A DNA stretch of 63,694 nt from a virus. Its lineage: Duplodnaviria; Caudoviricetes. The notes beneath the pieces were generated by a model. The model was given only the letters and a program-made list of their open reading frames with translations. It was not told where the DNA came from and ran no database searches. How positions within the stretch are numbered: position 1 is the first letter of the stretch; each line of letters opens with the position of its first letter. The DNA lies in IMG/VR virus record IMGVR_UViG_3300030101_003495, positions 1 through 63,694 of that record. The stretch is one strand, 5' to 3'. The translations under genes were made by a program, and so were the position numbers. Below, in pieces: positions 2,956 through 47,644 of the stretch.

Positions 2956-3264
2956 ATGGCTTTTAAAATTAAACCACCTTATGTGATTGATAATACACCA
3001 TTGTATCATCTTGATTTTGAAGAAGATGGTTTACTTGGTAGAGCTGATAAAAACGGAAGCATATTAATAAATAAAAACATAACAGACCCCAAACAGAAAG
3101 CAAGCGTAATACGTCATGAAAAAGTACATCTTAATGATATGAAAAAAGGTATACTAGATTATGATGATAAAAACGTTTACTGGAAAGGTAAAAAATATCC
3201 TCGTTCTTCATTTAATGAGGGTAATAAAAATTTACCTTGGGAAAAAAAAGCTTATAACGCATAA
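2956..3264 (+). CDS. Small zincin-like metallopeptidase
   Basis: HExxH (IRHEKVH) plus downstream PWE..AY. Confidence 0.65.
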   Translation: MAFKIKPPYVIDNTPLYHLDFEEDGLLGRADKNGSILINKNITDPKQKASVIRHEKVHLNDMKKGILDYDDKNVYWKGKKYPRSSFNEGNKNLPWEKKAYNA

Positions 3265-6051: not shown

Positions 6052-6256
6052 AGTAGCTAAAGAAGCAATAGTTGATTCTGATGATGATATTTCTGCAGAC
6101 AGATTAAAAAACGCAGCTGCTACAAAAAAATTAGCTATATTTGATGCTTTTGAAATACTTAACCGTATAGAAGAAGAAGAGAATATGTTAAAAGAAACTA
6201 GTAAAAAAGATAAAGGAGCAAGCTTTAAAGGTTTTGCAGAAAATAGATCTAAATAA
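5984..6256 (+). CDS. Putative terminase small subunit
   Basis: Helical 90-aa protein directly upstream of, and coupled to, terL. Confidence 0.5.
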   Translation: MNTKKTKESIIQAGQKAVEELIKVAKEAIVDSDDDISADRLKNAAATKKLAIFDAFEILNRIEEEENMLKETSKKDKGASFKGFAENRSK

Positions 6257-8478
6257 TGTATAAGCAAACTCTTTATAAAATTTTACCTAATCATATAAAA
6301 TCTAAAATACTTAAAAAAAATAACAGGTATAAAAAATGGGAAGCAGGTTATAATGAAGAACACGATGTTGTTATTATTAGTAAGAGTGGTAAGATTGGTG
6401 AAATATATGAAATACAAGGTCTTAAAATTGCGCTTCCATTATTAGAAGATGTTTATAAAAGATCAGATAAAAAAGAAGAACAGTATTGGGAGGTAAAAGA
6501 ATATCCTAAACAATTAGATAAAATTAAAACTGTATTTGATTGGAATAATTATCCTGCTCAATTTAAAGATAAATGGTATGACTATATTGATGAAGAGTTT
6601 AAAAGGCGTGAACAAGGCTTTTGGTTCTATAACAAAGGTATTCCTAGTTATATTACTGGTTCTCATTATATGTACTTGCAGTGGACCAAGATTGATGTTG
6701 GGCACCCAGAGTTCAGGGAATCTAACAGAATTTTCTTCATATTTTGGGAAGCCTGCAAACTTGATTCTCGATCCTATGGACTGTGCTATCTTAAGAATAG
6801 ACGATCCGGTTTTTCTTTCATGGCATCTTCAGAGCTTGTACACCAGGCCACTATATCCTCAGATTCCAGATATGGTATACTTTCGAAGAGTGGAGCTGAT
6901 GCGAAGAAGATGTTTACCGATAAGGTGGTACCAATCTCCGTTAATTACCCCTTTTTTTTTAGACCCATACAGGACGGTATGGACAGGCCCAAAACGGAAC
7001 TTGCCTACAGAGTACCGGCGTCCAAACTTACCCGTAAGAAACTTGATCAGAACGAACGTGCCGAGGACCTCGTCGGGCTTGACACGACCATCGATTGGAA
7101 GAACACGGGGGACAACTCGTACGATGGGGAGAAGCTCAAACTTCTCGCCCATGACGAATCGGGCAAATGGGAGAGGCCGGACAACATCCTCAATAACTGG
7201 AGGGTTACAAAAACAACATTAAGATTAGGTAGTAGAATAATAGGTAGATGCATGATGGGTTCAACGTCCAATGCATTAGATAAAGGAGGTGCTAATTTTA
7301 AAAAACTATATGATGCGTCAGACGTTACAAAAAGAAACAGAAATGGACAGACTAATTCAGGACTATATAGTTTGTTCATACCTATGGAATGGAATTACGA
7401 AGGATACATCGATACTCATGGATTTCCTGTATTCGAAACTCCGAAAAAAGCGGTTAGAAGTATCGATGGCGGAGAAATTAAAATCGGTGTCATCTCACAT
7501 TGGGAAAACGAAGTAGAAGGTTTAAAAAATGACCAAGACGGTTTAAATGAATTTTATCGTCAGTTTCCAAGAACTGAAAAACATGCTTTTAGAGATGAAG
7601 CAAAACAATCTTTATTTAATCTAACTAAGATTTATGAACAAATAGATTATAACGAAGATTTAAAAAACACAAATATCCTTACAAAAGGAAGTTTTCAATG
7701 GGAAAATGGTGTAAAAGATACAAGAGTGATATTTGTTCCAAACAATAATGGCAGGTTTTTAGTATCTTGGATACCACCAGTTAATTTACAAAATAAATAT
7801 ATAATTAAAAATGGTATTAGGTATCCTGGAAATGATCATACTGGTGCTTTTGGCTGTGATAGTTATGATATCTCTGGTACAGTAGATGGTAGAGGCTCTA
7901 AAGGAGCTTTGCATGGTTTAACTAAATTTTCTATGGAGGATGTTCCTCCAAATAGTTTTTTCTTAGAATATATAGCTAGACCACAAACAGCTGAAATATT
8001 TTTTGAAGATGTTTTAATGGCTATATCTTTTTATGGTATGCCATTACTTGCAGAAAATAACAAACCAAGATTATTATATTATTTAAAAAGAAGAGGTTAC
8101 AGAGGTTATTCTATGAATAGACCAGATAAAGTTTATAATAAATTATCTGTTACAGAAAGAGAAATAGGTGGAATACCTAATACAAGTGAAGATATTAAAC
8201 AAGCACATGCTGCTGCTATTGAAGATTATATTGAAAACTTTGTTGGTTTAATTACTACAGGTTATGGAGATATGTATTTTCAAAACACATTAGACGACTG
8301 GGCAAAGTTTAATATAAACAATAGAACTAAGCATGACGCTTCAATAAGCTCTGGTTTAGCTATAATGGCTTGTAATAAAAACAGGTATACACCTCACGCT
8401 AAAAGAAATATATCATCAGTTCCTTTAAAGTTTAAGTCATATGATAATAAAGGATATAATTCAAAAATAATCACATAA
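6256..8478 (+). CDS. terL: Terminase large subunit
   Basis: Walker A-like KNRRSGFS, Walker B LAHDESGK, motif III MGST, nuclease GCDSYD and HDASIS. Confidence 0.92.
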   Translation: MYKQTLYKILPNHIKSKILKKNNRYKKWEAGYNEEHDVVIISKSGKIGEIYEIQGLKIALPLLEDVYKRSDKKEEQYWEVKEYPKQLDKIKTVFDWNNYPAQFKDKWYDYIDEEFKRREQGFWFYNKGIPSYITGSHYMYLQWTKIDVGHPEFRESNRIFFIFWEACKLDSRSYGLCYLKNRRSGFSFMASSELVHQATISSDSRYGILSKSGADAKKMFTDKVVPISVNYPFFFRPIQDGMDRPKTELAYRVPASKLTRKKLDQNERAEDLVGLDTTIDWKNTGDNSYDGEKLKLLAHDESGKWERPDNILNNWRVTKTTLRLGSRIIGRCMMGSTSNALDKGGANFKKLYDASDVTKRNRNGQTNSGLYSLFIPMEWNYEGYIDTHGFPVFETPKKAVRSIDGGEIKIGVISHWENEVEGLKNDQDGLNEFYRQFPRTEKHAFRDEAKQSLFNLTKIYEQIDYNEDLKNTNILTKGSFQWENGVKDTRVIFVPNNNGRFLVSWIPPVNLQNKYIIKNGIRYPGNDHTGAFGCDSYDISGTVDGRGSKGALHGLTKFSMEDVPPNSFFLEYIARPQTAEIFFEDVLMAISFYGMPLLAENNKPRLLYYLKRRGYRGYSMNRPDKVYNKLSVTEREIGGIPNTSEDIKQAHAAAIEDYIENFVGLITTGYGDMYFQNTLDDWAKFNINNRTKHDASISSGLAIMACNKNRYTPHAKRNISSVPLKFKSYDNKGYNSKIIT

Positions 8479-10890
8479 ATGATTAATATAAACTATAACA
8501 GCAGCTTTCCAGATCAGGTAGTACCTGAAGCAGAGAAAAGATCTTTAGAATATGGATTAGCTGTTGCACAAGCAATAGAGCATGAGTGGTTTAGAAACAA
8601 TAGTGGGCAAAACAGGTTTCTTAACAATTATCAAAACTTTAATAGATTAAAACTATATGCAAGAGGTGAACAACCTGTGCAAAAATATAAAGATGAATTA
8701 GCTATAAACGGCGATTTATCTTATCTTAATTTAGACTGGAAACCAGTACCCATATTATCTAAATTTGTAGATATAGTTGTTAATGGCATGACAAACAAAG
8801 GCTATGAAATAAAGTCTTACGCTACAGATCCTTTTGCTATTAAAGAAAGAACTGATTTTGCTACTAATGCCTTGCAAGATATAGAGGCTCAAGAATTTAT
8901 ACAAGAACTATCTCAACAACTAGGAAAAGATTTTTCTGTATCTGGTATTGATTCAGGAGAATTACCAGCAAACAAAGATGAACTTGATCTTTATATGCAG
9001 TTAAATTATAAGCAAAGTATAGAAATTGCAGAAGAAGAAGTTATAAATAATATTTTAGATTTTAATAAATACGATGAAACTAAAAAAAGATTAGCATATG
9101 ATCTTACTGTTTTAGGTATAGGTTGTGTTAAAACTAATTTTAATTTAGCTGAAGGAGTTACGGTAGACTATGTAGACCCTGCAAATATTTGTTATTCTTA
9201 CACTACAGATCCTAACTTTGAAGATTTATATTATGTAGGTGAAGTAAAAAGTATGTCACTTGCGGAAGTTAAAAAACAATTTCCTAATTTAACAGATAAA
9301 GAATTAGAAGAAATACAAAAATTTCCTGGAAGAAACTCTTACACAAATAATTGGTGGGGACAATCTCAACAAGATCAAGTACAAATATTATATTTTGAAT
9401 ATAAAACGTATCATGATCAAGTATTTAAAATAAAACAAACAGATAACGGTTTAGAAAAAACATTAGAAAAAGATGATACTTTTAATCCGCCTGAAAGTGA
9501 TAATTTTAAAAGAGCTTCAAGATCTATAGAGGTTTTATATAGCGGTGCTAAAGTTTTAGGTCTGGGTAATAATATATTAAAATGGGAGTTATGTGAAAAT
9601 ATGACTAGACCAAATGCTGATACTAGTAAAGTTAACATGAATTATATTTTATCAGCACCTAGAATGTATCAAGGCCGTATTGAATCTTTAGTTAGTAAAA
9701 CTATAGGTTTTGCTGATATGATTCAATTAACTCATTTAAAATTACAACAAGTTTTAGCAAGAATGGTACCAGATGGCGTGTATGTAGATGTTGATGGATT
9801 AGCAGAAGTTGATCTAGGTAATGGTACTAATTATAACCCATCTGAGGCTCTTAATATGTACTTTCAAACAGGTAGTATTGTTGGTAGATCATTAACACAA
9901 GATGGTGAATTAAATAGAGGTAAAGTACCTATTCAAGAATTACAAACCTCAAATGGTATGTCTAAAATATCAGCTATGATACAGACATATCAATACTATT
10001 TACAAATGATACGTGATGTAACTGGTTTAAATGAAGCAAGAGATGGTAGTACACCTGATAAAAATGCTTTAGTTGGTTTACAAAAATTAGCTGCTGCCAA
10101 CTCTAATACAGCAACCAGACATGTATTACAGTCGTTAATGTATTTGACTGTTAGAACCTGTGAAAACATAAGCTTACGTGTATCTGATATGCTTAATTTT
10201 CCTTTAACTAAAGAATCTTTAATAGGTAGTATAAATACCTTTAATGTTAATACTTTAGAAGAAATAGATAAATTAGCATTGCATGATTTTGGTATATTTT
10301 TAGAATTAGAACCAGAAGAAGAAGAAAAAAGTTTATTAGAACAAAACATACAAATAGCATTACAAGCTAAAAATATTGGATTAGAGGACGCAATTGATAT
10401 ACGCGAAATAAAAAACATTAAGCTTGCTAATCAAATGCTTAAATTAAAACAAAAAGAAAAGGCAGAACAGGCAAGGATTAATCAGTTACAAAATATTCAA
10501 GCCCAAGCTCAAGCTAATGCTCAATCAGCTGAAAAAGCTGCTTTAGCTGATGTTCAAAAAGAACAAGCTATGGCTGAAACAAAAGTACAAATAGAACAGG
10601 CCAAGTCTGATTTTGAAATACAAAGAATGCAACAAGAAGCTGCTATTAAAAAACAATTAATGGCTGAAGAGTTTGAATATCAAATGAAGCTAGCTGAAAT
10701 GCAAGCTGAAGTACAAAAACAAAAAGAACAATCAATAGAAGATCGTAAAGATAAAAGAGTAAAAATACAAGGTACACAACAAAGTGAACTTATAAACCAA
10801 CGACAAAATGATTTATTACCTCAAAACTTTGAATCAGCAGGTAATGATAATTTAGATGGTTTTGGGCTAGAGCAATTTACCCCACAGTAA
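8479..10890 (+). CDS. Portal protein
   Basis: 803 aa after terL; P.L.KFVDIVVNG, R.VTGLNEARDG motifs; long Q/E coiled-coil C-terminus. Confidence 0.88.
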   Translation: MININYNSSFPDQVVPEAEKRSLEYGLAVAQAIEHEWFRNNSGQNRFLNNYQNFNRLKLYARGEQPVQKYKDELAINGDLSYLNLDWKPVPILSKFVDIVVNGMTNKGYEIKSYATDPFAIKERTDFATNALQDIEAQEFIQELSQQLGKDFSVSGIDSGELPANKDELDLYMQLNYKQSIEIAEEEVINNILDFNKYDETKKRLAYDLTVLGIGCVKTNFNLAEGVTVDYVDPANICYSYTTDPNFEDLYYVGEVKSMSLAEVKKQFPNLTDKELEEIQKFPGRNSYTNNWWGQSQQDQVQILYFEYKTYHDQVFKIKQTDNGLEKTLEKDDTFNPPESDNFKRASRSIEVLYSGAKVLGLGNNILKWELCENMTRPNADTSKVNMNYILSAPRMYQGRIESLVSKTIGFADMIQLTHLKLQQVLARMVPDGVYVDVDGLAEVDLGNGTNYNPSEALNMYFQTGSIVGRSLTQDGELNRGKVPIQELQTSNGMSKISAMIQTYQYYLQMIRDVTGLNEARDGSTPDKNALVGLQKLAAANSNTATRHVLQSLMYLTVRTCENISLRVSDMLNFPLTKESLIGSINTFNVNTLEEIDKLALHDFGIFLELEPEEEEKSLLEQNIQIALQAKNIGLEDAIDIREIKNIKLANQMLKLKQKEKAEQARINQLQNIQAQAQANAQSAEKAALADVQKEQAMAETKVQIEQAKSDFEIQRMQQEAAIKKQLMAEEFEYQMKLAEMQAEVQKQKEQSIEDRKDKRVKIQGTQQSELINQRQNDLLPQNFESAGNDNLDGFGLEQFTPQ

Positions 10891-24522: not shown

Positions 24523-26262
24523 ATGGCTAAACAAAATTTTTCAGGAGGAACACAATATTACAGGTCTGGCGCATATGCAAATCCAGGTTCAGAAGTAAAC
24601 CTTAAAAATATTGAAAGACAAGGAGATGTTGCAATGGGTATTGTACAAAATAACTTTCTTAGAACAAATGCTTTACTTAAAAGAGAATCAGCTAAACAAA
24701 CCGCCGCGGCTCAAGAGGCTCAAAACTTATTAGATTGGGGATTAAATAATCAAGCTGAAATGATGAATGATTTTCAGCAAGAAGCATTAAAATATGGAGT
24801 AAACAACGAAAGCCTTAATAAATTAATAGAAGGAAAAATATCAACATTTTCAAAAGCAACTATAGGGTATAAAACAGCTACAGATTCAAAAGAAAGAGCA
24901 TTTTATAAAAAACAAATGGATGCTGCAAGTAAAACTTTAAATAGTATTGTTCCAATGTTTCAAGCAATGGAAAGCCAAGCTGCTTCTTTAAGTAATATGG
25001 AAGATAAAGGTAATGCAAATCAAGGCGGCTCGTTGTGGTTGGCTAATAAAACTGGTAATGAAATTTTATTAGGTCAAACTATTAATGCTGGAAGAGGTGG
25101 TCCAAGCGCTTATCAAAGATTTACAGCGTCTGAAGACGGAACTCTTTTAATGAGCGCAGGTGCTAACGTACCTGCTCAATATAAAACTACGCAAAATAGA
25201 AAAGGTACTTTTGGGTTTTATAATAAAAAAACTGGTAAGTTTGAAAAAAATCCAGACCAAGGACAATCTACAACAACCATTGATCCTAATTATAAACCTC
25301 AAAGAATTACAGATGTAGATGCTATTCAGTTTTTCTCAAGACCTATACCTACTGCACCTAATTGGAAAAAATCAATAACTGATAAATTAGATCCATTACT
25401 TTATGATGATAAAGGTAACTTAAAAAGACAGTTTTATAAAACTAGTGGAGAAACTGATGCTGGAGGTAATGCTATACTTGAAGAAGTACAAAAAACTAAA
25501 TATCTTCCTAATGGTGAAAGAGTTATAACCTATGTTAATGTGCCAGATATGGAAAAAATAGGTGCGCTTATATCTAACGAAGTAGAGCAAGTAGGTTCTG
25601 GTTATTTTAAAAATCTAGAAGAAACAAAAATAATATACAACATGCTAGGCAATGAAGGTGATGTAAAAGCCGGCGCCAATAATAGTTCTTTATTATATGG
25701 TAATATAGAACAAAATGCTGCTGATGAAATACTTACTGGTTTTGCTCAGTTTGCTTTAAATACTGGTAACTTTAATGATATAAAAGTAAGAGAAGATAGA
25801 GTTAAATTTGACAAGCCAGATAAAGGTGGTAGTGGTAGCACACCTCAATTAACTATTATAGATTTTCTTAATTTACCTAATGATCCTTCAAAAATAGCTG
25901 AATCATTTAATAGACTTTTTGGTGTAGGAACTAAAAGAGCTACATATGATCAAGGTAAGTTAATTATAAGTGATAGTGCAACAGATAAAGATGGAAATAA
26001 AATTACTGATGATGCTGTGTTTGAGATAGGTGATCTTGATAAAAAAGTTTTAGGTGATTGGGATAAAAAATCCTCCACAATACAAAAAGAATTAGATAGA
26101 ATAAAAAGAAATTTATTTCAACAATATTTAGGTGATAATAAAGGTGACAATGCTCTTTTAAAGAAAATAGATTCTTATTTAGATTTAGATCAAAATAGAA
26201 GAGAAAAATATAGAGATAACTTATTTTCTAAAAATAAAAAACCTTTACCAATTAAAAGATAA
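24523..26262 (+). CDS. Putative internal virion/ejection protein
   Basis: Position between ejection-type genes; helical composition. Confidence 0.55.
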   Translation: MAKQNFSGGTQYYRSGAYANPGSEVNLKNIERQGDVAMGIVQNNFLRTNALLKRESAKQTAAAQEAQNLLDWGLNNQAEMMNDFQQEALKYGVNNESLNKLIEGKISTFSKATIGYKTATDSKERAFYKKQMDAASKTLNSIVPMFQAMESQAASLSNMEDKGNANQGGSLWLANKTGNEILLGQTINAGRGGPSAYQRFTASEDGTLLMSAGANVPAQYKTTQNRKGTFGFYNKKTGKFEKNPDQGQSTTTIDPNYKPQRITDVDAIQFFSRPIPTAPNWKKSITDKLDPLLYDDKGNLKRQFYKTSGETDAGGNAILEEVQKTKYLPNGERVITYVNVPDMEKIGALISNEVEQVGSGYFKNLEETKIIYNMLGNEGDVKAGANNSSLLYGNIEQNAADEILTGFAQFALNTGNFNDIKVREDRVKFDKPDKGGSGSTPQLTIIDFLNLPNDPSKIAESFNRLFGVGTKRATYDQGKLIISDSATDKDGNKITDDAVFEIGDLDKKVLGDWDKKSSTIQKELDRIKRNLFQQYLGDNKGDNALLKKIDSYLDLDQNRREKYRDNLFSKNKKPLPIKR

Positions 26263-26272
26263 TTAATAAAAT

Positions 26273-29200
26273 ATGTACGAACTAGACGGTACTGAATATT
26301 CTATTGAAGAAATAGAAGAAGCTGCAGCTCAATCAAATCTTTCAGTTGAAGAGTATTTATCTGAATTTAATATAACTCAACCTGAAAAAGAAGTAAAGAC
26401 GCCAACCACAACTTCGGGTGCGGATGTGGTAGAAGAAATAGCACCCGATTTGGAATTAACATCGGTAGATACTTCATTGGAATTACCACCTGTTGAACCA
26501 ATTACATCTGTTAAAACAGGTACTGTAGCAGATACAACAATTGAAAAAGAAAGAGATTTAATTAGAGAACAAGATATTGTTAATGAATATAATAATATAG
26601 AAAAAGAAATTATATTTAATAATCCTGATTATACTCCTGAAGAAATTAAAGCTAATGTTGATAAAAAACAACGACTATTATTAGAAGAATTAGATACTTT
26701 TGATAAAGACATGCTATTAAATAGTGCTATTAATGTTAAAAATGATGTTAATAAAAGAATGCAACTTGATATAAGTCAAGCTAAAAATAATATTAATGAA
26801 ATACAAAATATAAAAAACAATTTAAAAGCAGCTATTGACAACGGTACGCCTTACTCTAAAGAACAAGAAAAAGAAATAATAGATAATCATAATGCTTTAG
26901 TTGAACAAACAAAGTTATTAGAGCAAAATATTATAAGAGATGCTGGTGTTATTGAAGATAAAAATAAATTTATAGATACTTTTAAAAGAAGTTATAGTGA
27001 AATAGATAGATTAACAAACTCTGTTCTTTCTGCAGGTACAGATATAGCTTTAGGCGCATTGCTTACTTTAGATATGGCTAAGGATGAAGAAGGAAAAGAA
27101 AAATCAATAAGCAAAGATTTATTATCTTATAGAGAAGAATTAGCTAGAATATCTGAAGAAGATTTAGGAAAAGCTATTGCTGTTGAAAACATTAGTGATC
27201 CTCAAGACGCTTTAAGATGGGCTGCTGATGGTTTAATTAATTTTGTTCCTTCCGGAGTTATGGCTTTTAGTGGTCCAGCAGCAATGCCTTTATTTTTTGC
27301 TAGCGGTTATGGTGGTCGTTTATCTGAGTTTGAGCTTGCTGATAAAAAAGCTGAAGAAGTTATACCTAAACTTGAAGCTCAATTAAAAGAAACTCAAGAC
27401 CCTTTATTAAAACAAAAAATATTAGAAGAAATAGAGTTTCACAATAAAGCTCTTAGCACCACTGATATGAAGAAATTTTTAACTAGTACTTTATATGGTG
27501 GTTATGAGGTTGGTACTGAGTGGCTTACTACTTTACAGTTAGTTAAAGGATTAAAAGGATTAAATGGTAGTAAAGCTTTAGAAACGTTTTATAAAGAAGC
27601 AGGTCAAGCTAGTTTTGGTAAAGCATTAGTTAATACAATTAAAGATCCTAAAGTATTAAAAACACTAGGACTAGGTACTTTAAGTGGGCCTATTGAAGGT
27701 GGTGGTGAGGGTTTAAATCAATTGTTAGGTAATATTACAGATATAACTTTAAACGATGCTAATGTTTCGGTGTTAGATGGAGTTGGAGAAGCAACCGCAC
27801 AAGGCGTATTAATAGGTAATGGGTTTGCTCTGGCTAGAGGTGCTCAAATAGCAAGAGCAGGTATGATGGATGTTATTGCTGATAAACAAACTAAAATAGA
27901 GTTAAATAAACTTTACGATGAAATACAAGGTCTTACATCTGATTTAAAACAAACAACAGACTCTAAGGTAAGAAAGCAACTTTATGATGTTATAAGAAAA
28001 AAAATTAAAGAATCTAACACAGTCCAAGATTACAGCGCTTCGGCGTTTATAAAATTAGATCCAAAAAAACAAAAAGAAGTTTTTGAATTAGATAGAAAAG
28101 CTACAAATATTAACAACAGATGGATAGAAATAGCTAAATCAAACGCTAGTGAAGCTACAAAAACTCAATTAAAAAAAGATTTATTAGAACAATTTAATAG
28201 TTTGCAAGGACAAAAAAGAACTATATTAAATAATTCTAATAGTTTAAAATTAAAAAATTTAGAACTTCCTGAAGGTTTAGTACAAGGAGATGTTGTAAGA
28301 AACCTTAAAAGAACTCAAAACAATTTATTATCTGTTGAACAAAATAATAAAAAAACAAAGTATTTAAACAAACAAATAACTTTTGCAAATAATGATTTAG
28401 AAAATATAAATAATTTTATTAATTCTAACGAAACAACTTTAACTCTTGAAAGTGGTAGTGTTATAAACAAAGAAGATGCATCAGAAATTATAAATATTAT
28501 AGCAGAAAACGCAGATGGTGGTTTTAATAAAAATAATAAAAATAGTTATATACATTTAGAAATGGCTGTTAGTGGAAATCCTGCAGCTCCAATACATGAG
28601 TATTTTCATGCTATGGGTAAAGATAATGCTTTTACTAAAGATCAATATGATAATATTAAAGATGATTTTTTAGACTTATTAAAAACTAAATTAAAAAATA
28701 AAGAAATAACTAAAGATCAGCACGATACTATTAAAAAAAGATTTAAACTATATGATGGTAGCCCTGCACAATCTGAAGAACTTTTAGCAATAACAGGTGA
28801 TGCTATAAATCTTGATATACTTTCTGAAGATGATATAACTTTTTTACAAAAATCAGCTTATAATATAAAGAAATTTGTAGCAGGTTTGATAGGTAAAGAA
28901 GAATCTGAGAATTTTGGTATTGATACAGCTGAAGATGCTTTTAGTTTACTGCAAAGTTTTCAAAGAAGTATAGTAAAAAATCAAGATATTAATATAAGAG
29001 CTAATGTTTTAGAGCCTACAGAACAACAAACAGATGATACAACTGTTTTATCTAGATCTACTTTATTTGAAGAAATAAATAAACTTGTTCCAGATAATAT
29101 TAAAACTAAAACAGAGTTTGATAATTTTGTACGTTCACCTGATGGAGCTAAGTTATTTAATGCCATATATAATGAAGGCGGAGCTATAAATAATTATATT

Positions 29201-32200
29201 AGACAAAGAGCTACTACTATAGAAGAGTCTCAAAAAATAATAGATAATACTATAGAAAGAGTATTAAACTTTAATCCTGAGAGTACAAGAGATGATGGTA
29301 GCGCAGTTGGCATTGAAGGTTTTACTGAAAGAGTAATGGCTGATACTAGATTTGCTAAGTTAGATGCTAAAAAAGATTTGTTTAAAGAATCTGAAAAAGC
29401 TAAACAAGAACAACAATTAGACTCACCACAAGCAGCTCAAGTTACTGCAGAAGAATCTGCAACAACTGAAACTACAAAAGAAAAAACATCTAAATTAAGA
29501 AGAGATTTAGGTATAAAACAAGGTGATGATCTTTATAATGCAGTAAAACAAACAGCTAAAGAAATATTTGGAAAAGATTTAGACAATGTAGAACTTAAAA
29601 AACTTAAAGCTATTGTAAATAAAAAAGCTAGAGGTAGTGAGTTGTTTAAAGATATAGCTAAATTAATGGGTACTGAAAAAGCTATAGATCAACAGTTTTT
29701 AAATAAAAATATATTAAATATTTTAAAAGATCTACCTGTTTCTGATTTAGTAAAATTAGAAAGAGGAACAAAAGGCGAAAAAATATTTACTAAAACTGGA
29801 CCTAGACTAGGACCAATTGCTGCTCGTGAAGCTGTTAACGAAGGCTTACTACCTAAAAATACTAATATTAATTCAGGGCCTAGAGTATCTGAAAAATTAC
29901 CTGTTACATTAGAACAAGCTAAAGAGTTTTTTACTCAAAAAAGAAAAGCAGGTCTTGTTGGTGTTATAGCAGAAAATTTAGTTGCCGATGCTGCTCCATC
30001 TGTAACTAAAGAAATAAAAACACCACCTAAAAGAAGAGCTGAAGTTTTAGATGTTATTGATAGAGATCCTGAATTAAAGTTTAGTAAAAGTTTAAGAAAA
30101 ATATTTAATCTTCCTTTAAAAGGTAGAAGTAAAGTTAATACTTTGTTAAAAGAGAAAGGATTAAATGAAACTTTGGATTTAAAAAAAGATATTCTTACTG
30201 AATCTGGTAGAAAAAAAATATTAGATAATTTTATATATATAATGACATTTGGCCCTAAAGATATGTGGTTTGGGCCTAGGGGTGGTTCTGTTTTTACAAC
30301 AAGTGGAAAAGACTACGATGTTAGCATGACTGAATTTAGAAAAGATGGATCTAAAAATCCTAAATGGACAAAAGAAAAATCAGACGCATTAAAAAAGCTT
30401 AGACAAGATTTAATAGATTATTCTAAATCTGATGATGCTGTTTTTGGAGAACCTATAAAAGGTGTTACTGATTATAAATTAAGTAGTTATAGTACATTAT
30501 TAGGTAATGCTAAAAACGCGGCTATTAAAAATAAAAATGGAGATATTAAATCGTTTAATAATAAAGTAAGTAAAATTCACAAAGAAATGTGGAGGCGATT
30601 TAATAATGCAATAAAATCTGATAAAAACAACGCTTCAAAAATAGGTACATATTTAAAACTTGTTGCTAATCATACTGGTCATTGGCATAAACTAGGTGCT
30701 CAAATAGTTGGCTGGTCTACTAGTCCTAAAGGTAAAAGTGGTACGTTATATGAATATGAGCATGCTATGCCTGCCACTGCTGCTTATTTATATTTATTAG
30801 ATACAGCTATTGATAAAGGTAATTTTGATTTATCATATCAAGCTGTTATGGATAATTATAAATTAATAGCGTTAGATAAAGCAGAAAATGCTAAACTAGG
30901 AAAAGCTGGTCTTTCTACAGGTATGCCACAAGGATGGTTTCTTGGTGATAATTTTTGGTGGCAAAGATATTTTAACCCTGAAGTAGGCGCTATTGAAGGA
31001 GGTATAACACCTAACTCTATAATGATGACTAATGGTAGAACAATGGGTAATCAACTTGGTGTAGACGCTATGGGTCGACGTACTAATCAAACAATAGAAG
31101 CTAGTAAAAAATTAGTATCTAAAATAAATAATAAAATATTACCTAAAAATTTACAATTAAAAGGAGATTTTACTAACCAAATGGTGTTAGATAAAATGGC
31201 TGAAGTTGATAATATTAATAAAGAAGAAGCGTTAAAGTTTAGTAAATCAGAAGATTTAAGTAAACAGTTTAATGATATAATAGAAAACAAAACTGGTATA
31301 GGTACCGACAAAAGATATGCTAAAGTAAAAGCTAAAGTTGCAGGTGCGGGTAAAGGTAAATTTAATTTCTTTGTACCACCATCAGCTGAAGACTTTGTAG
31401 GTTTATTATATAAAACTCTTGGTAAAGGTAAAACAGGTGATGCGCAAATGGCTTGGTATAAAGTTAATTTATTAGATCCTTTTGCAAGAGCCATGAATGA
31501 TTTAAATAGAGATAGATTAACTTTGTTAAATGACTACAAAGCGCTTAAAAAAGATCTTAAAATTGTTCCTAAAAATTTACGTAAAAAAATACCAGGTGAA
31601 CCATTTACTAGAGAACAAGCAGTAAGAGTATATATTTGGGACCAACAAGGTATGAGTATACCCGGGTTATCACAAACAGATTTAAAAGAATTAACTAAAT
31701 ATGTAAATGATAATGCTGATTTAAAAATATTTGGAGATCAATTGTTAGGTATAAATAAAGGAGATCCATATAATGCACCTAAAAATGAAGGTTGGACAGC
31801 TGGAGATATTTCTAGCGATTTATTAGAAGGTTTAAGAACAACTAAAAGAGCAAAGTATTTAGAACTTTGGCAACAAAATGTTGATCAAATATTTTCTGAA
31901 ACTAACTTAAATAAATTAGAGGCTGCCTTTGGTGAAGGCTATAGAGGTGCATTAGAAAATATACTTTACAGAATGAAAACTGGTAGAAACAGAACATTTG
32001 GTAAAGATGGTTTAGTAAATAGAGCCACAGACTGGTTGACAAATTCTGTTGGTGCTATTATGTTCTTTAACACAAGATCAGCTATACTTCAAACTATATC
32101 TTCTATAAACTTTATAAATTTTAGTGATAATAATATATTAGCAGCAGGTAAAGCGTTTGCTAACATACCTCAGTATAAAAAAGATTTTGTAAAATTAATG

Positions 32201-33322
32201 AACTCTCCGTTTTTATTAGCTCGTAGAGACGGTTTAAAAATGAATGTAAATGAAGCTGATATAGCTGATATGGCTAAAGATCCTGGTAGTATGGCTAGAA
32301 GATTTATAGCTAAAACATTAAGATTAGGGTTTTTACCTACACAAATAGCAGATAGTTTTGCTATAGCTTCAGGCGGTGCTACTTTTTATAGGAATAGAAT
32401 TAAAAAATATGTAAAAGAAGGTATGTCTGAGCAAGCCGCAGAAAAACAAGCTATGATAGATTTTACAGAAATAGCTGAAACATCTCAACAATCAAGTAGA
32501 CCTGATAAAATTAGTGAGCAGCAAGCTGGTGGTTTAGGGCGTGTTATATTAGCTTTTGCTAACACTCCAATGCAATATACCAGAGAGATTAAAAAAGCCG
32601 CTCTTGATCTTAAAAATGGCCGAGGAGATACAAAGACTAATATATCTAAGATTATATATTATGGCTTTGTACAAAACTTAATATTTAACGCTTTACAACA
32701 AGCTTTATTTGCATTAATGTTTGACGACGAAGAAGAGTTAACTAAAAAAGAACTAGAAAAGAAAGAAACAAAAGATCAAAAAAGATATTTAAGAATACTT
32801 AATTCTATGTCAGATCAATTTTTAAGAGGTATTGGCGTTGGTGGAGCTATTGTTTCTACTTTAAAAAATGCTACTATAAAATTATTAGAAAAAAGTAAAG
32901 AAAAAGAACCTGAATATGCTAAAAATGCTATCATTGAATTAGCACAAGTATCACCTCCTCTTGGTTCTAAGTTTAGAAAAATAAATAATGCAGCTAATGC
33001 TTTTGAATGGAACAAGGATGAAATGAAAGCAACAGGTTGGAGTTTAGATAATCCTGCTTATTTAGCTGGTGCTAATGTAATATCAGCAATGACAAACTTG
33101 CCTGCTGATAGAGTTGTTAAAAAAATAGACAACCTAAGAAATGCTAGCAATACAGATTTACAAATTTATAAGCGTATTGCTTCTGCTGGAGGTTGGAGTA
33201 GATGGGATTTAGATATTCCAGCACCTAAACTTCCAACTACTACTTCTAAAAAATTACGTAGAGTTAGTACTGGATTAAAAGGTGGTTTTAAATCAAGTTT
33301 AAAAGGAGGAAAATTAAAATAA
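26273..33322 (+). CDS. Giant internal virion (ejection) protein with zincin HExxH
   Basis: 2349 aa; PIHEYFHAM; C-terminal region typical of large polyvalent virion proteins. Confidence 0.7.
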   Translation: MYELDGTEYSIEEIEEAAAQSNLSVEEYLSEFNITQPEKEVKTPTTTSGADVVEEIAPDLELTSVDTSLELPPVEPITSVKTGTVADTTIEKERDLIREQDIVNEYNNIEKEIIFNNPDYTPEEIKANVDKKQRLLLEELDTFDKDMLLNSAINVKNDVNKRMQLDISQAKNNINEIQNIKNNLKAAIDNGTPYSKEQEKEIIDNHNALVEQTKLLEQNIIRDAGVIEDKNKFIDTFKRSYSEIDRLTNSVLSAGTDIALGALLTLDMAKDEEGKEKSISKDLLSYREELARISEEDLGKAIAVENISDPQDALRWAADGLINFVPSGVMAFSGPAAMPLFFASGYGGRLSEFELADKKAEEVIPKLEAQLKETQDPLLKQKILEEIEFHNKALSTTDMKKFLTSTLYGGYEVGTEWLTTLQLVKGLKGLNGSKALETFYKEAGQASFGKALVNTIKDPKVLKTLGLGTLSGPIEGGGEGLNQLLGNITDITLNDANVSVLDGVGEATAQGVLIGNGFALARGAQIARAGMMDVIADKQTKIELNKLYDEIQGLTSDLKQTTDSKVRKQLYDVIRKKIKESNTVQDYSASAFIKLDPKKQKEVFELDRKATNINNRWIEIAKSNASEATKTQLKKDLLEQFNSLQGQKRTILNNSNSLKLKNLELPEGLVQGDVVRNLKRTQNNLLSVEQNNKKTKYLNKQITFANNDLENINNFINSNETTLTLESGSVINKEDASEIINIIAENADGGFNKNNKNSYIHLEMAVSGNPAAPIHEYFHAMGKDNAFTKDQYDNIKDDFLDLLKTKLKNKEITKDQHDTIKKRFKLYDGSPAQSEELLAITGDAINLDILSEDDITFLQKSAYNIKKFVAGLIGKEESENFGIDTAEDAFSLLQSFQRSIVKNQDINIRANVLEPTEQQTDDTTVLSRSTLFEEINKLVPDNIKTKTEFDNFVRSPDGAKLFNAIYNEGGAINNYIRQRATTIEESQKIIDNTIERVLNFNPESTRDDGSAVGIEGFTERVMADTRFAKLDAKKDLFKESEKAKQEQQLDSPQAAQVTAEESATTETTKEKTSKLRRDLGIKQGDDLYNAVKQTAKEIFGKDLDNVELKKLKAIVNKKARGSELFKDIAKLMGTEKAIDQQFLNKNILNILKDLPVSDLVKLERGTKGEKIFTKTGPRLGPIAAREAVNEGLLPKNTNINSGPRVSEKLPVTLEQAKEFFTQKRKAGLVGVIAENLVADAAPSVTKEIKTPPKRRAEVLDVIDRDPELKFSKSLRKIFNLPLKGRSKVNTLLKEKGLNETLDLKKDILTESGRKKILDNFIYIMTFGPKDMWFGPRGGSVFTTSGKDYDVSMTEFRKDGSKNPKWTKEKSDALKKLRQDLIDYSKSDDAVFGEPIKGVTDYKLSSYSTLLGNAKNAAIKNKNGDIKSFNNKVSKIHKEMWRRFNNAIKSDKNNASKIGTYLKLVANHTGHWHKLGAQIVGWSTSPKGKSGTLYEYEHAMPATAAYLYLLDTAIDKGNFDLSYQAVMDNYKLIALDKAENAKLGKAGLSTGMPQGWFLGDNFWWQRYFNPEVGAIEGGITPNSIMMTNGRTMGNQLGVDAMGRRTNQTIEASKKLVSKINNKILPKNLQLKGDFTNQMVLDKMAEVDNINKEEALKFSKSEDLSKQFNDIIENKTGIGTDKRYAKVKAKVAGAGKGKFNFFVPPSAEDFVGLLYKTLGKGKTGDAQMAWYKVNLLDPFARAMNDLNRDRLTLLNDYKALKKDLKIVPKNLRKKIPGEPFTREQAVRVYIWDQQGMSIPGLSQTDLKELTKYVNDNADLKIFGDQLLGINKGDPYNAPKNEGWTAGDISSDLLEGLRTTKRAKYLELWQQNVDQIFSETNLNKLEAAFGEGYRGALENILYRMKTGRNRTFGKDGLVNRATDWLTNSVGAIMFFNTRSAILQTISSINFINFSDNNILAAGKAFANIPQYKKDFVKLMNSPFLLARRDGLKMNVNEADIADMAKDPGSMARRFIAKTLRLGFLPTQIADSFAIASGGATFYRNRIKKYVKEGMSEQAAEKQAMIDFTEIAETSQQSSRPDKISEQQAGGLGRVILAFANTPMQYTREIKKAALDLKNGRGDTKTNISKIIYYGFVQNLIFNALQQALFALMFDDEEELTKKELEKKETKDQKRYLRILNSMSDQFLRGIGVGGAIVSTLKNATIKLLEKSKEKEPEYAKNAIIELAQVSPPLGSKFRKINNAANAFEWNKDEMKATGWSLDNPAYLAGANVISAMTNLPADRVVKKIDNLRNASNTDLQIYKRIASAGGWSRWDLDIPAPKLPTTTSKKLRRVSTGLKGGFKSSLKGGKLK
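26395..26448 (+). other. Predicted -1 programmed ribosomal frameshift signal (A_AAG plus H-type pseudoknot)
   Basis: A_AAG 26395-98, 6-nt spacer, stem 1 ACCACA/TGTGGT, stem 2 TCGGGTGC/GCACCCGA, A-rich loop 3. Confidence 0.7.
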
Positions 33323-47570: not shown

Positions 47571-47571
47571 G

Positions 47572-47644
47572 TTGCGTGGGAAGGATTCGAACCTCCGACC
47601 TTTGGGTTATGAGCCCAACGAGCTGGCCACTGCTCTACCACGCT
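47572..47644 (-). tRNA. tRNA-Met(CAT), initiator (fMet) type
   Basis: Cloverleaf; anticodon arm TTGGG-CTCATAA-CCCAA with three consecutive G-C pairs; 1:72 mismatch (A.A); CCA not encoded. Confidence 0.92.

Follow-up and report, generated by a model that had tools for sequence, protein, structure and literature searches.

Programmed frameshifts in tailed phages are textbook knowledge for tail chaperones and are found in some capsid genes. The G/GT shift of phage lambda takes place on the heptamer G_GGA_AAG and is not known to need a pseudoknot. In bacteria, the tau and gamma products of dnaX arise by programmed -1 ribosomal frameshifting in E. coli and by transcriptional slippage on an A-run in Thermus. 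The copA slip site, C_CCA_AAG, is accompanied by a downstream pseudoknot, and insertion sequences of the IS3 family carry a downstream pseudoknot or hairpin at the shift site. The slipperiness of A_AAG in a given organism is governed by the tRNA-Lys set of the host.

According to PMC5009743, ribosomes of E. coli shift very readily on G_GGA_AAG and on A_AAG. The same paper records shifting on A_AAG behind a P-site codon that is not itself slippery, at A_CGA_AAG and at G_CGA_AAG, the latter being the site at which IS1222 shifts, and the g-t genes of HCTV-5 use the heptamer G_GGA_AAG (PMC5009743). In E. coli copA, an efficient early -1 shift produces the 70-aa CopA(Z), which corresponds to the N-terminal domain of the 834-aa product (PMC5009743). 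In the literature searched, which included PMC5009743, PMC8008677 and PMC10885494, we found no example of a giant gene for a virion or ejection-type protein with a conserved shift at its very beginning.

The window analyzed here is a 63,694-nt stretch of DNA from an uncultured marine phage (Caudoviricetes; IMG/VR record IMGVR_UViG_3300030101_003495), and the locus of interest lies at the 5' end of its giant gene (Table 1). The giant protein matched no family in Pfam or PHROG and is a putative ejection protein, a label drawn solely from its size and its position in the structural module. Cultured-phage records contained no match to positions 26000-27500 (blastn) or to the giant protein (tblastn), and a locus search with the single giant protein returned no relatives, an alignment query being required. 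The giant-protein homologues (n = 25) range from 1433 to 3047 aa. The TerL relatives are short-tailed phages of Flavobacterium and Cellulophaga, in whose names the letter P marks a podovirus. Searching the window with an HMM of the N-terminal module (N-module) detected no second copy. An internal SD-plus-GTG start is present in some relatives and absent from the window.

Table 1. Features of the giant gene and of the predicted frameshift cassette, in window coordinates
Feature	Position	Strand	Remarks
Giant ORF, zero frame	26273..33322	+	2349 aa; within the structural module, 3' of the genes for terminase, portal and virion proteins
N-terminal 42 codons (acidic N-module and joint)	26273..26398	+	shared by the giant protein and the predicted short one
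Shift heptamer A_GTA_AAG	26392..26398	+	slippery tetranucleotide A_AAG at 26395-26398
Spacer, 6 nt	26399..26404	+	homologue spacers about 5-8 nt
Pseudoknot stem 1, 6 bp	26405..26430	+	ACCACA 26405-26410 / TGTGGT 26425-26430
Pseudoknot stem 2, 8 bp	26414..26448	+	TCGGGTGC 26414-26421 / GCACCCGA 26441-26448
-1 ORF entered at the slip	26395..26496	+	33 codons from AAA; TGA at 26494-26496; no ATG, GTG or TTG inside
Conserved -1 tail core	26446..26487	+	RFGINIGRYFIGIT; predicted beta-hairpin

Judged from the DNA and its relatives, this locus is likely to be a programmed -1 ribosomal frameshift cassette that yields a 74-aa short isoform of the giant protein. An earlier note, made from the window sequence alone, had proposed such a shift, and its A_AAG, spacer, both stems and -1 stop are all present in the sequence; slippage would indeed give a product of the 74 aa it had named, from 42 plus 32 codons up to the TGA. 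The GTA AAG of the heptamer forms codons 41-42 of the giant ORF. Both stems are perfectly complementary, and the 5' arm of stem 2 sits inside the loop of stem 1 in an H-type arrangement with loops of 3 nt (L1), 3 nt (L2) and 10 nt (L3). Stem 2 is also the hairpin of the minimum free energy (MFE) fold. Taken by itself, the window sequence gives a modest nested fold, with an MFE of -16 kcal/mol (z = -1.8) that 11 of 200 shuffles equalled. The GC content of the patch, 0.45-0.48, is equalled by other 60-nt patches in the giant gene. With a purpose-written pseudoknot scorer, the observed score was reached by 0 of 200 dinucleotide shuffles, and a score as high occurs at just 8 of 2309 in-frame positions of the giant gene. 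Eleven in-frame NNA_AAG sites are present in this gene, and a pseudoknot is combined with a long -1 frame at the shift site only, which has 33 open -1 codons versus at most 14 at the ten others. No -1 run of 33 codons or more occurs elsewhere in the gene, the longest being 31. Rfam gave no match within 26200-26700. The only homopolymer at the shift site of the window is AAA, short of the run of about eight or more A/T that characterizes transcriptional slippage. A_GTA_AAG permits single-tRNA slippage only, and the efficiency of the shift in the window may therefore be low.

The locus combines the elements of a bacterial-type -1 signal, i.e. an in-frame slippery site, a structure at a spacing of 6 nt and a conserved -1 ORF that has no start codon, and it can be set beside each of the known systems. 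As in copA/CopA(Z), the predicted shift comes early in a long gene, before about codon 70 (here at codon 42), and would lead to a short N-terminal product; there is no homology between the two, however, the long product being a phage virion protein here and an ATPase in copA, and the -1 frame here would add a conserved 32-residue tail, whereas copA stops almost at once. The IS3 family (IS3, IS1222, IS150, IS911) shares the A_AAG or A_AAA_AAG, the short spacer and the pseudoknot or hairpin, but the shift in these elements fuses two long ORFs into a transposase, while here it would truncate through a 33-codon -1 ORF; nor is the gene an IS3-family DDE transposase fusion, its ORF belonging to a virion module and having no Pfam match. 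Lambda G/GT is likewise a -1 shift in a phage structural module, by which two proteins with a common N-terminus are made in a fixed ratio. It extends a small protein encoded ahead of the tape-measure gene, whereas here a giant protein would be cut after 42 codons, and a pseudoknot is conserved; the overlapping small ORFs and extending shift of a tail assembly chaperone are not what is found at this locus. Finally, in dnaX as in the prediction for this locus, shifting yields the shorter of two proteins that begin with the same N-terminus. Different species also arrive at one dnaX outcome through ribosomal or through transcriptional slippage, a parallel to the heptamer and A-run classes described below, but the dnaX shift lies two thirds into the gene and adds 1-2 residues, in contrast to a predicted shift at codon 42 that would add a conserved peptide.

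To follow the cassette in relatives, we used 33 distinct homologue 5' ends from 48 of 51 fetched loci, leaving out one locus whose 5' end lies beyond its contig (L019) and two with a more distant gene (L021 and L022). The earlier note had guessed that G_GGA_AAG or A_AAG would be conserved, and an in-frame A_AAG is kept at the joint between N-module and linker in 26 of the 33, with the heptamer GGGAAAG (G_GGA_AAG) in 20, AGTAAAG in 4 and GGAAAAG in 2. All 26 use AAG although it is the minority lysine codon in the giant genes (20 AAG versus 232 AAA in the window), and each of the 20 genes with an in-frame G_GGA_AAG contains exactly one. Conservation of the cassette extends down to about 35% protein identity. 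Scanning for H-type pseudoknots was positive for 25 of the 26 cassette-bearing relatives and placed 24 of these structures as expected, with a spacer of about 5-8 nt, a stem 1 (S1) of 6-11 bp and a stem 2 (S2) of 6-8 bp; the slip site of L042 is displaced and its pseudoknot weak, and L036 has no pseudoknot under the scan rules. In 22 of 24 distinct sequences, the pseudoknot score was equalled by no more than 5 of 200 shuffles. The MAFFT alignment of class B has 98.3% of cells paired, versus 19-56% with slid partners, and six pairs changed on both sides; that of class A has 87.3% paired versus 35-52% when slid, despite four rows with another S1 register; and 95.8% of cells are paired in the alignment of stem 2, with two pairs changed on both sides. 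Stem covariation in homologues, which had been put forward as a check on the proposal, is thus borne out by compensatory changes in both stems around a preserved spacer, although the S1 register differs among clades and part of this "covariation" is therefore structure potential rebuilt rather than strict column-wise covariation.

The peptide encoded by the -1 frame is conserved together with the RNA signal. Its translation in the window is KDANHNFGCGCGRRNSTRFGINIGRYFIGITTC, and the consensus in relatives is C-x-C ... RYG-x-x-G-x-[YW]F[IF]G[IF]T, in which the residues C, C, G, G, F and G are invariant among the aligned peptides. A peptide HMM gave one match per cassette-bearing locus and zero in cassette-less relatives. 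The -1 frame is open for 26-42 codons in 26/26 cassette-bearing relatives and opens 1-19 codons 5' of the slip (three or fewer in 15/26); in 25 genes, a -1 run of that length is found at 0-2.4% of the remaining in-frame positions, and L042 has such runs at 6%. When the codons of the 14-codon core are read in the -1 frame, the entropies at their first, second and third positions are 0.68/0.45/1.00, and the corresponding values by codon position for a zero-frame control region of the same genes are 0.78/0.56/1.07. Mean pairwise amino acid identity over the same nucleotides (276 pairs) is 0.63 in the -1 frame versus 0.42 in the zero frame, and variability in the tail core is greatest at zero-frame second codon positions. 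This substitution pattern fits a translated -1 frame as the earlier note envisaged, with variation falling on -1-frame third positions, and indicates that the -1 frame is under purifying selection. The stems share nucleotides with the codons for Cys in the -1 peptide, and for this reason RNA and peptide constraints are not fully separable there. A zero-frame motif in the same region, D-x-S-L-E-L-P, was considered as a prohead-protease site and rejected as the shadow of the -1-frame motif YFIGIT; it was found only alongside the cassette, where the zero frame is the less conserved of the two.

The same tail is found in a wider set of viral contigs, in a search with a degenerate DNA pattern that represents the W-type motif and does not cover the Y-type motif of the window itself. 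The pattern occurs in at least 120 viral contigs, with at least 95 distinct HMM-positive segments. Among the matches listed, 87/95 segments occupy the -1 frame of an ORF that begins with ATG and encodes at least 100 aa, and the tail opens 12-89 codons into the long ORF. Shift sites in these listed matches fall into A-run (38), NNA_AAG (17), G_GGA_AAG (16), T_TTN (11), G_GGA_AAA (4) and none (1), and pseudoknots accompany 10/16 and 10/23 of the heptamer and tetramer classes and 2/35 of the A-run class. This split between the classes suggests that one and the same product is reached through two different devices, namely a heptamer plus pseudoknot and a long A-run. Shift-site runs of 8-11 A are found in other lineages with the same tail. 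In two viral contigs (L147 and L058), the tail appears in a single ORF; the frame of the large ORF is open from an A11 or A8 run onward, and these are consequently the same cassette in another phase. BLAST synteny did not tie L147 or L058 to the window.

Candidates for a separate gene encoding the short protein were also traced. A profile search with the -1 peptide returned 15 proteins at E <= 0.001, 14 of which (58-127 aa) have the predicted architecture, and the 10 of these that were looked up are all singletons. One of the small proteins (P0039) maps to four identical viral contigs only via a switch from the giant-ORF frame into the -1 frame; requiring the same -1 shift in identical DNA, it was produced by a gene caller that tolerates frameshifts. 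The small database proteins do not provide independent evidence for the short product. Five of the 31 loci carrying closer relatives of P0028 were inspected, and all contain the cassette. The apparent stand-alone genes traced in this way are probably gene-caller artefacts or the same cassette in the other phase, and none of the candidates followed (public small proteins and viral contigs) proved to be a separate gene for the short protein. The small proteins matched no family in Pfam or PHROG, except that the N-terminal part of P0040 corresponds to phrog_8954 (unknown function).

In the mechanism we propose, a ribosome decoding codon 42 (AAG) would meet the H-type pseudoknot 6 nt downstream, which would resist unwinding. 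In a fraction of ribosomes, the lysine tRNA would let go of AAG within A_AAG and pair with AAA, one base upstream; the G_GGA_AAG of most relatives would allow both tRNAs to shift. Shifted ribosomes would translate 32 further -1 codons before stopping at the TGA, giving a 74-aa product composed of the acidic N-module, a basic Cys/Gly-rich stretch and the conserved aromatic beta-hairpin, while unshifted ribosomes would continue to the 2349-aa protein. One gene would thus provide two proteins with the same N-module at a ratio set by the RNA signal, and the shift may also restrict how many copies of the giant protein are made, as the earlier note proposed. Ribosomes very probably do shift at this site, and the short product probably works as a protein, most likely by partnering or competing with the giant protein through the N-module they share.

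Recoding could alternatively be real but purely regulatory, draining ribosomes from the giant gene or producing a tail that acts as a cis-acting arrest peptide, with no function for a free 74-aa protein. Such a role would suit a position at the extreme start of a 7-kb gene, where the gain from stopping early is greatest. It would also suit the tail, which is basic and, as in known arrest peptides, rich in W, F and G. The whole cassette is moreover absent from 7/33 relatives, from which it follows that the short product is dispensable in some lineages. Attenuation, however, requires no conserved peptide, yet the tail core appears to be under purifying selection; the distance from tail motif to stop varies from 1 to 6 residues among relatives, a poor fit to arrest at a fixed point; and neither the constant presence of an N-module ahead of the tail nor the arrival of two unrelated shift devices at the same product favors regulation only. 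We regard this explanation as unlikely, and prefer a short isoform that functions as a protein.

It is far less probable that the -1 ORF is an overlapping gene with its own internal start, or that these nucleotides are a recombination linker between exchangeable modules. N-modules are mosaic among relatives, with breakpoints at both cassette ends, as a linker would have it, but a linker leaves both the codon-phase pattern and the compensatory changes in the stems unexplained, and an internal start is opposed by a -1 frame that lacks ATG, GTG and TTG ahead of the slip in 26/26 relatives and throughout the -1 ORF of the window. Least probable of all is the absence of recoding, with stems and A_AAG arising by chance in a Thr/Pro/Gly/Ala-rich linker with GC-rich codons: the modest single-sequence fold, the other GC patches and the 11 NNA_AAG sites would allow it, but the comparative data already contradict it, as slip site, spacer, stems and -1 ORF are shared by 26 relatives of such divergence, zero-frame second positions are the most variable in the core, and a cassette-less relative (L028) has a linker with AT-rich codons and no -1 ORF.

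With a frameshift cassette as the preferred reading, a broader proposal can be made, to which we give even weight for and against. The giant genes of many uncultured tailed-phage lineages may hide a family of small proteins, overlooked by ordinary gene callers, in which the N-module of the giant protein itself is joined to a conserved basic beta-hairpin tail (RYG-x-x-G-x-WFFG-type) and which are made only by recoding, through a heptamer and pseudoknot or an A-run in either genomic phase. Such proteins could serve the giant protein as dedicated partners, whether as chaperones of assembly or ejection, as plugs or as membrane-active pilots, with a dose fixed by frameshift efficiency, amounting to a second "G/GT-like" principle of phage morphogenesis. 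Should the shift prove real, at least about 110 of the contigs encountered here would carry a conserved phage protein that standard annotation overlooks. Pseudoknot and A-run sites with the same product would then form a natural series useful for studying the exchange of recoding devices, and the cassette would offer a handle on the dosing, assembly or delivery of very large internal proteins.

Structural modeling used P0035, which carries the same cassette on another contig and comes from a frameshift-tolerant gene call. Its N-module was modeled with moderate confidence as two short strands and two helices, and a fold search with this model returned nothing at E <= 0.001 (best 0.88). Metatranscriptome contigs from run X18 match positions 26948-27272 of the giant gene, outside the shift site. 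DNA contigs from other runs span the cassette with no indels and no stem changes, and the natural variant T26457C replaces L with S in the zero frame and is silent in the -1 frame.

Re-examination of the sequence places every element of the predicted -1 ribosomal frameshift where the earlier note had put it: A_AAG in frame at codons 41-42 of the giant gene, a 6-nt spacer, stems of 6 bp (S1) and 8 bp (S2) forming an H-type fold, and 33 codons of -1 frame closed by a TGA stop. On a simple purpose-written scorer the pseudoknot score was reached by none of 200 shuffles and, among the gene's 2309 in-frame positions, by only 8; nested folding gave z = -1.8, and of the 11 in-frame NNA_AAG sites no other pairs a long -1 frame with a pseudoknot. 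The GC-rich patch ascribed to the site exists but is not unique, equally GC-rich patches lying elsewhere in the gene. Taken alone, the site is suggestive, not compelling. The same gene also contains an in-frame canonical A_AAA_AAG heptamer, with a -1 stop after two codons and a weak pseudoknot score (26).

Features of the phage record and of two tail-bearing contigs
Feature	Record	Position	Strand	Remark
Large terminase	window	6256-8478		structural module
Portal	window	8479-10890		structural module; several virion proteins next
Giant ORF	window	26273-33322		2349 aa; final gene of structural module
Mosaic 5' end of giant gene	window	26273-26500		
Slip site A_AAG	window	26395-26398		
Divergence of P0018 and of X7 and X11 contigs	window	26486-26487		end of tail core
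Stop of -1 frame (TGA)	window	26494-26496		
Match to X18 contig	window	26948-27272		inside giant gene
H-E-x-x-H	window	28595-28609		residues 775-779
A_AAA_AAG heptamer	window	30392-30398		
Part most widely common to listed tail-bearing contigs	window	about 31190-33230		P0001 (the window's giant protein) residues about 1640-2320
tRNA-Met (CAT)	window	47571-47644	-	sole tRNA gene
A11 run at joint	L147	about 3150-3165		
A8 run at joint	L058	about 2420-2430	reverse	

The giant protein has 25 database relatives, and alignment of 16 of these led to 9 viral and 42 metagenome loci, one of which (L011) is identical to the window. The gene start could be defined in 48 of the 51 loci (L019, with its 5' end cut, and L021 and L022, with a more distant gene, were dropped), giving 33 distinct 5' ends. 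Their N-terminal 35-40 or so residues belong to several unrelated module types, mostly followed by a linker; five ends, all of one module type, run directly into the protein body. An in-frame A_AAG lies precisely at the module/linker joint in 26 of the 33 ends, as G_GGA_AAG (20), GTA_AAG (4, including the window) or GAA_AAG (2), with the site of locus L042 shifted five codons from the joint. All 26 use AAG, though the usual lysine codon of these AT-rich genes is AAA, and none of the 20 genes with G_GGA_AAG carries this heptamer in frame anywhere else. The -1 frame opens 1-19 codons upstream of the site and extends for 26-42 codons, a length found at 0-2.4% of other positions (6% in L042), and holds no ATG, GTG or TTG before the slip site in any of these 26 ends. 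The seven ends without the slip site (L005, L010, L045, L031, L051, L017 and L028) have neither the -1 frame nor the tail peptide, so the cassette occurs either whole or not at all. The 5' end of the giant gene is itself mosaic: the 89% identical database protein P0002 carries another N-module and is identical only from just upstream of the slip site onward, and database protein P0018, with contigs of sequencing runs X7 and X11, diverges at the end of the tail core, so that recombination joints flank the cassette.

The pseudoknot is kept among relatives, with pairs changed on both sides in each of the two alignment groups, class A and class B. Our scan found an H-type pseudoknot 5-7 nt past the slip site in 24 of 26 ends (S1 6-11 bp, S2 6-8 bp), none in L036, and in L042 only a weak one at a displaced site; the stems have many different sequences, and 22 of the 24 distinct sequences scored above at least 195 of their 200 shuffles. 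On unbiased MAFFT alignments, with slid partners as controls, 98.3% of cells were paired in class B (7 rows) against 19-56% with partners slid, six pairs were altered on both sides, and the covariation score was reached by 0 of 500 shuffles; in class A (16 rows) the figures were 87.3% against 35-52%, with S2 95.8% paired and two of its pairs altered on both sides. Clades vary by 1-2 nt in the register of S1, and in class B the 3' arm of S2 lies about 22 nt farther on than in class A, where it is near. Judged by these alignments, the pseudoknot is conserved more in its topology than in its individual columns. No Rfam family matches the cassette region.

The -1 peptides align well, with a variable start, C-x-C-[GS]-G, a basic stretch, RYG-[FIV]-x-[VIA]-G-x-[YW]-F-[IF]-G-[IF]-T and a stop 1-6 residues on. 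Entropy by -1-frame codon position in the 14-codon core is 0.68/0.45/1.00, a profile matching that of ordinary coding regions of the same genes (0.78/0.56/1.07); third positions, which are zero-frame second positions, vary most, and over identical bases amino-acid identity is 0.63 in the -1 frame versus 0.42 in the zero frame. These patterns argue that the -1 frame is translated sequence, and from the codon-phase variation and higher -1-frame identity the zero-frame D-x-S-L-E-L-P is the shadow of the -1 motif. T26457C, a natural variant in other metagenomes, is synonymous in the -1 frame while changing the amino acid of the zero frame; the contigs of other metagenomes covering the site showed neither indels nor stem changes. 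With slip site, stems and -1 frame all conserved in relatives, the interpretation as a frameshift gains support, and the event is very likely real.

A degenerate pattern search for the W-type tail (W at the [YW] position, Y in the window) returned at least 120 viral contigs with at least 95 distinct segments matching the peptide HMM. Among the 95 segments listed, 87 occupy the -1 frame relative to an ORF of at least 100 aa that starts with ATG, beginning 12-89 (median 41) codons into it and having no ATG of their own; 44 of these host ORFs reach at least 1000 aa and 72 extend past the locus end. GC of the listed loci is 0.29-0.54, and the C-terminal third of the window's protein is matched by 19 of the 120 listed. 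The shift sites among the listed matches are G_GGA_AAG (16), G_GGA_AAA (4), NNA_AAG (17), T_TTN (11), none (1) and long A-runs (38), with pseudoknots in 10/16 and 10/23 of the first, non-A-run classes versus 2/35 of the A-run class. Because A-runs mostly come without a pseudoknot and, in the listed matches, A-run tails are without the Cys-rich part, this part may exist at the protein level largely as a shadow of the pseudoknot, which would leave the basic stretch with the RYG...WFFG hairpin as the tail's functional core. In contigs L147 and L058 the genome is in the other phase, with the short product as default and the long ORF open from the A-run on, an arrangement that transcriptional slippage would tolerate. 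The strongest reason to think the product itself important is that different shift devices would lead to it.

An AlphaFold model of the tail alone (pLDDT 62, moderate) has a beta-hairpin at residues 17-23 and 26-32, and that of the 75-aa database protein P0035 (pLDDT 63) has two short strands and two helices as well as a disordered linker and, at the C-terminus, a hairpin. A fold search gave no match, and a family search with the small proteins no family match. By analogy with G/GT, tau/gamma and CopA/CopA(Z), our preferred reading is that the shared N-module would serve as a docking element and the hairpin tail would direct the short form to another partner or location; that the nascent tail acts in cis as a regulator is a weaker rival. 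A profile search of 1.84 billion proteins found 14 small proteins of precisely the predicted architecture, which were at first read as stand-alone genes. This reading was rejected in favor of output from a frameshift-tolerant gene caller, since the 10 looked up were all singletons and P0039, on four identical contigs, is encoded only by reading first in the frame of the giant ORF and from there on in the -1 frame; such entries show just that a gene model favors the -1 frame there, and P0035, a singleton, is probably another such call. Public collections thus contain "proteins" that change reading frame mid-sequence (P0027-P0041, loci L173-L177), a gene-caller artifact mimicking the ribosome.

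The mechanism is a known bacterial type of -1 shift, but the cassette is not a member of the IS3, G/GT, dnaX or copA systems. Passages of PMC5009743 describe G_GGA_AAG and A_AAG as shift-prone, also after non-slippery P-site codons, and an early -1 shift in copA giving a 70-aa product. No prior description of such a cassette was found in the openly available main texts searched, including portions of PMC8008677 and PMC10885494; as far as we found, nothing described earlier has this context, this conserved tail or the interchange with A-runs.

The viral record, 63.7 kb and about 99% complete, has a terminase whose nearest relatives, at 45% identity, belong to Flavobacterium, Cellulophaga and Tenacibaculum phages, with one metagenomic record at 64%, and the host is therefore probably a marine member of the Bacteroidota. 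The giant protein matched no Pfam or PHROG family and no cultured-phage record, and its "ejection protein" label is a guess from size and position. An H-E-x-x-H motif, invariant across 16 aligned giant proteins, hints at a zinc metallopeptidase domain. A 672-nt contig from metatranscriptome run X18 is identical to part of the giant gene, which could mean that the gene is transcribed or that the library contained residual DNA.
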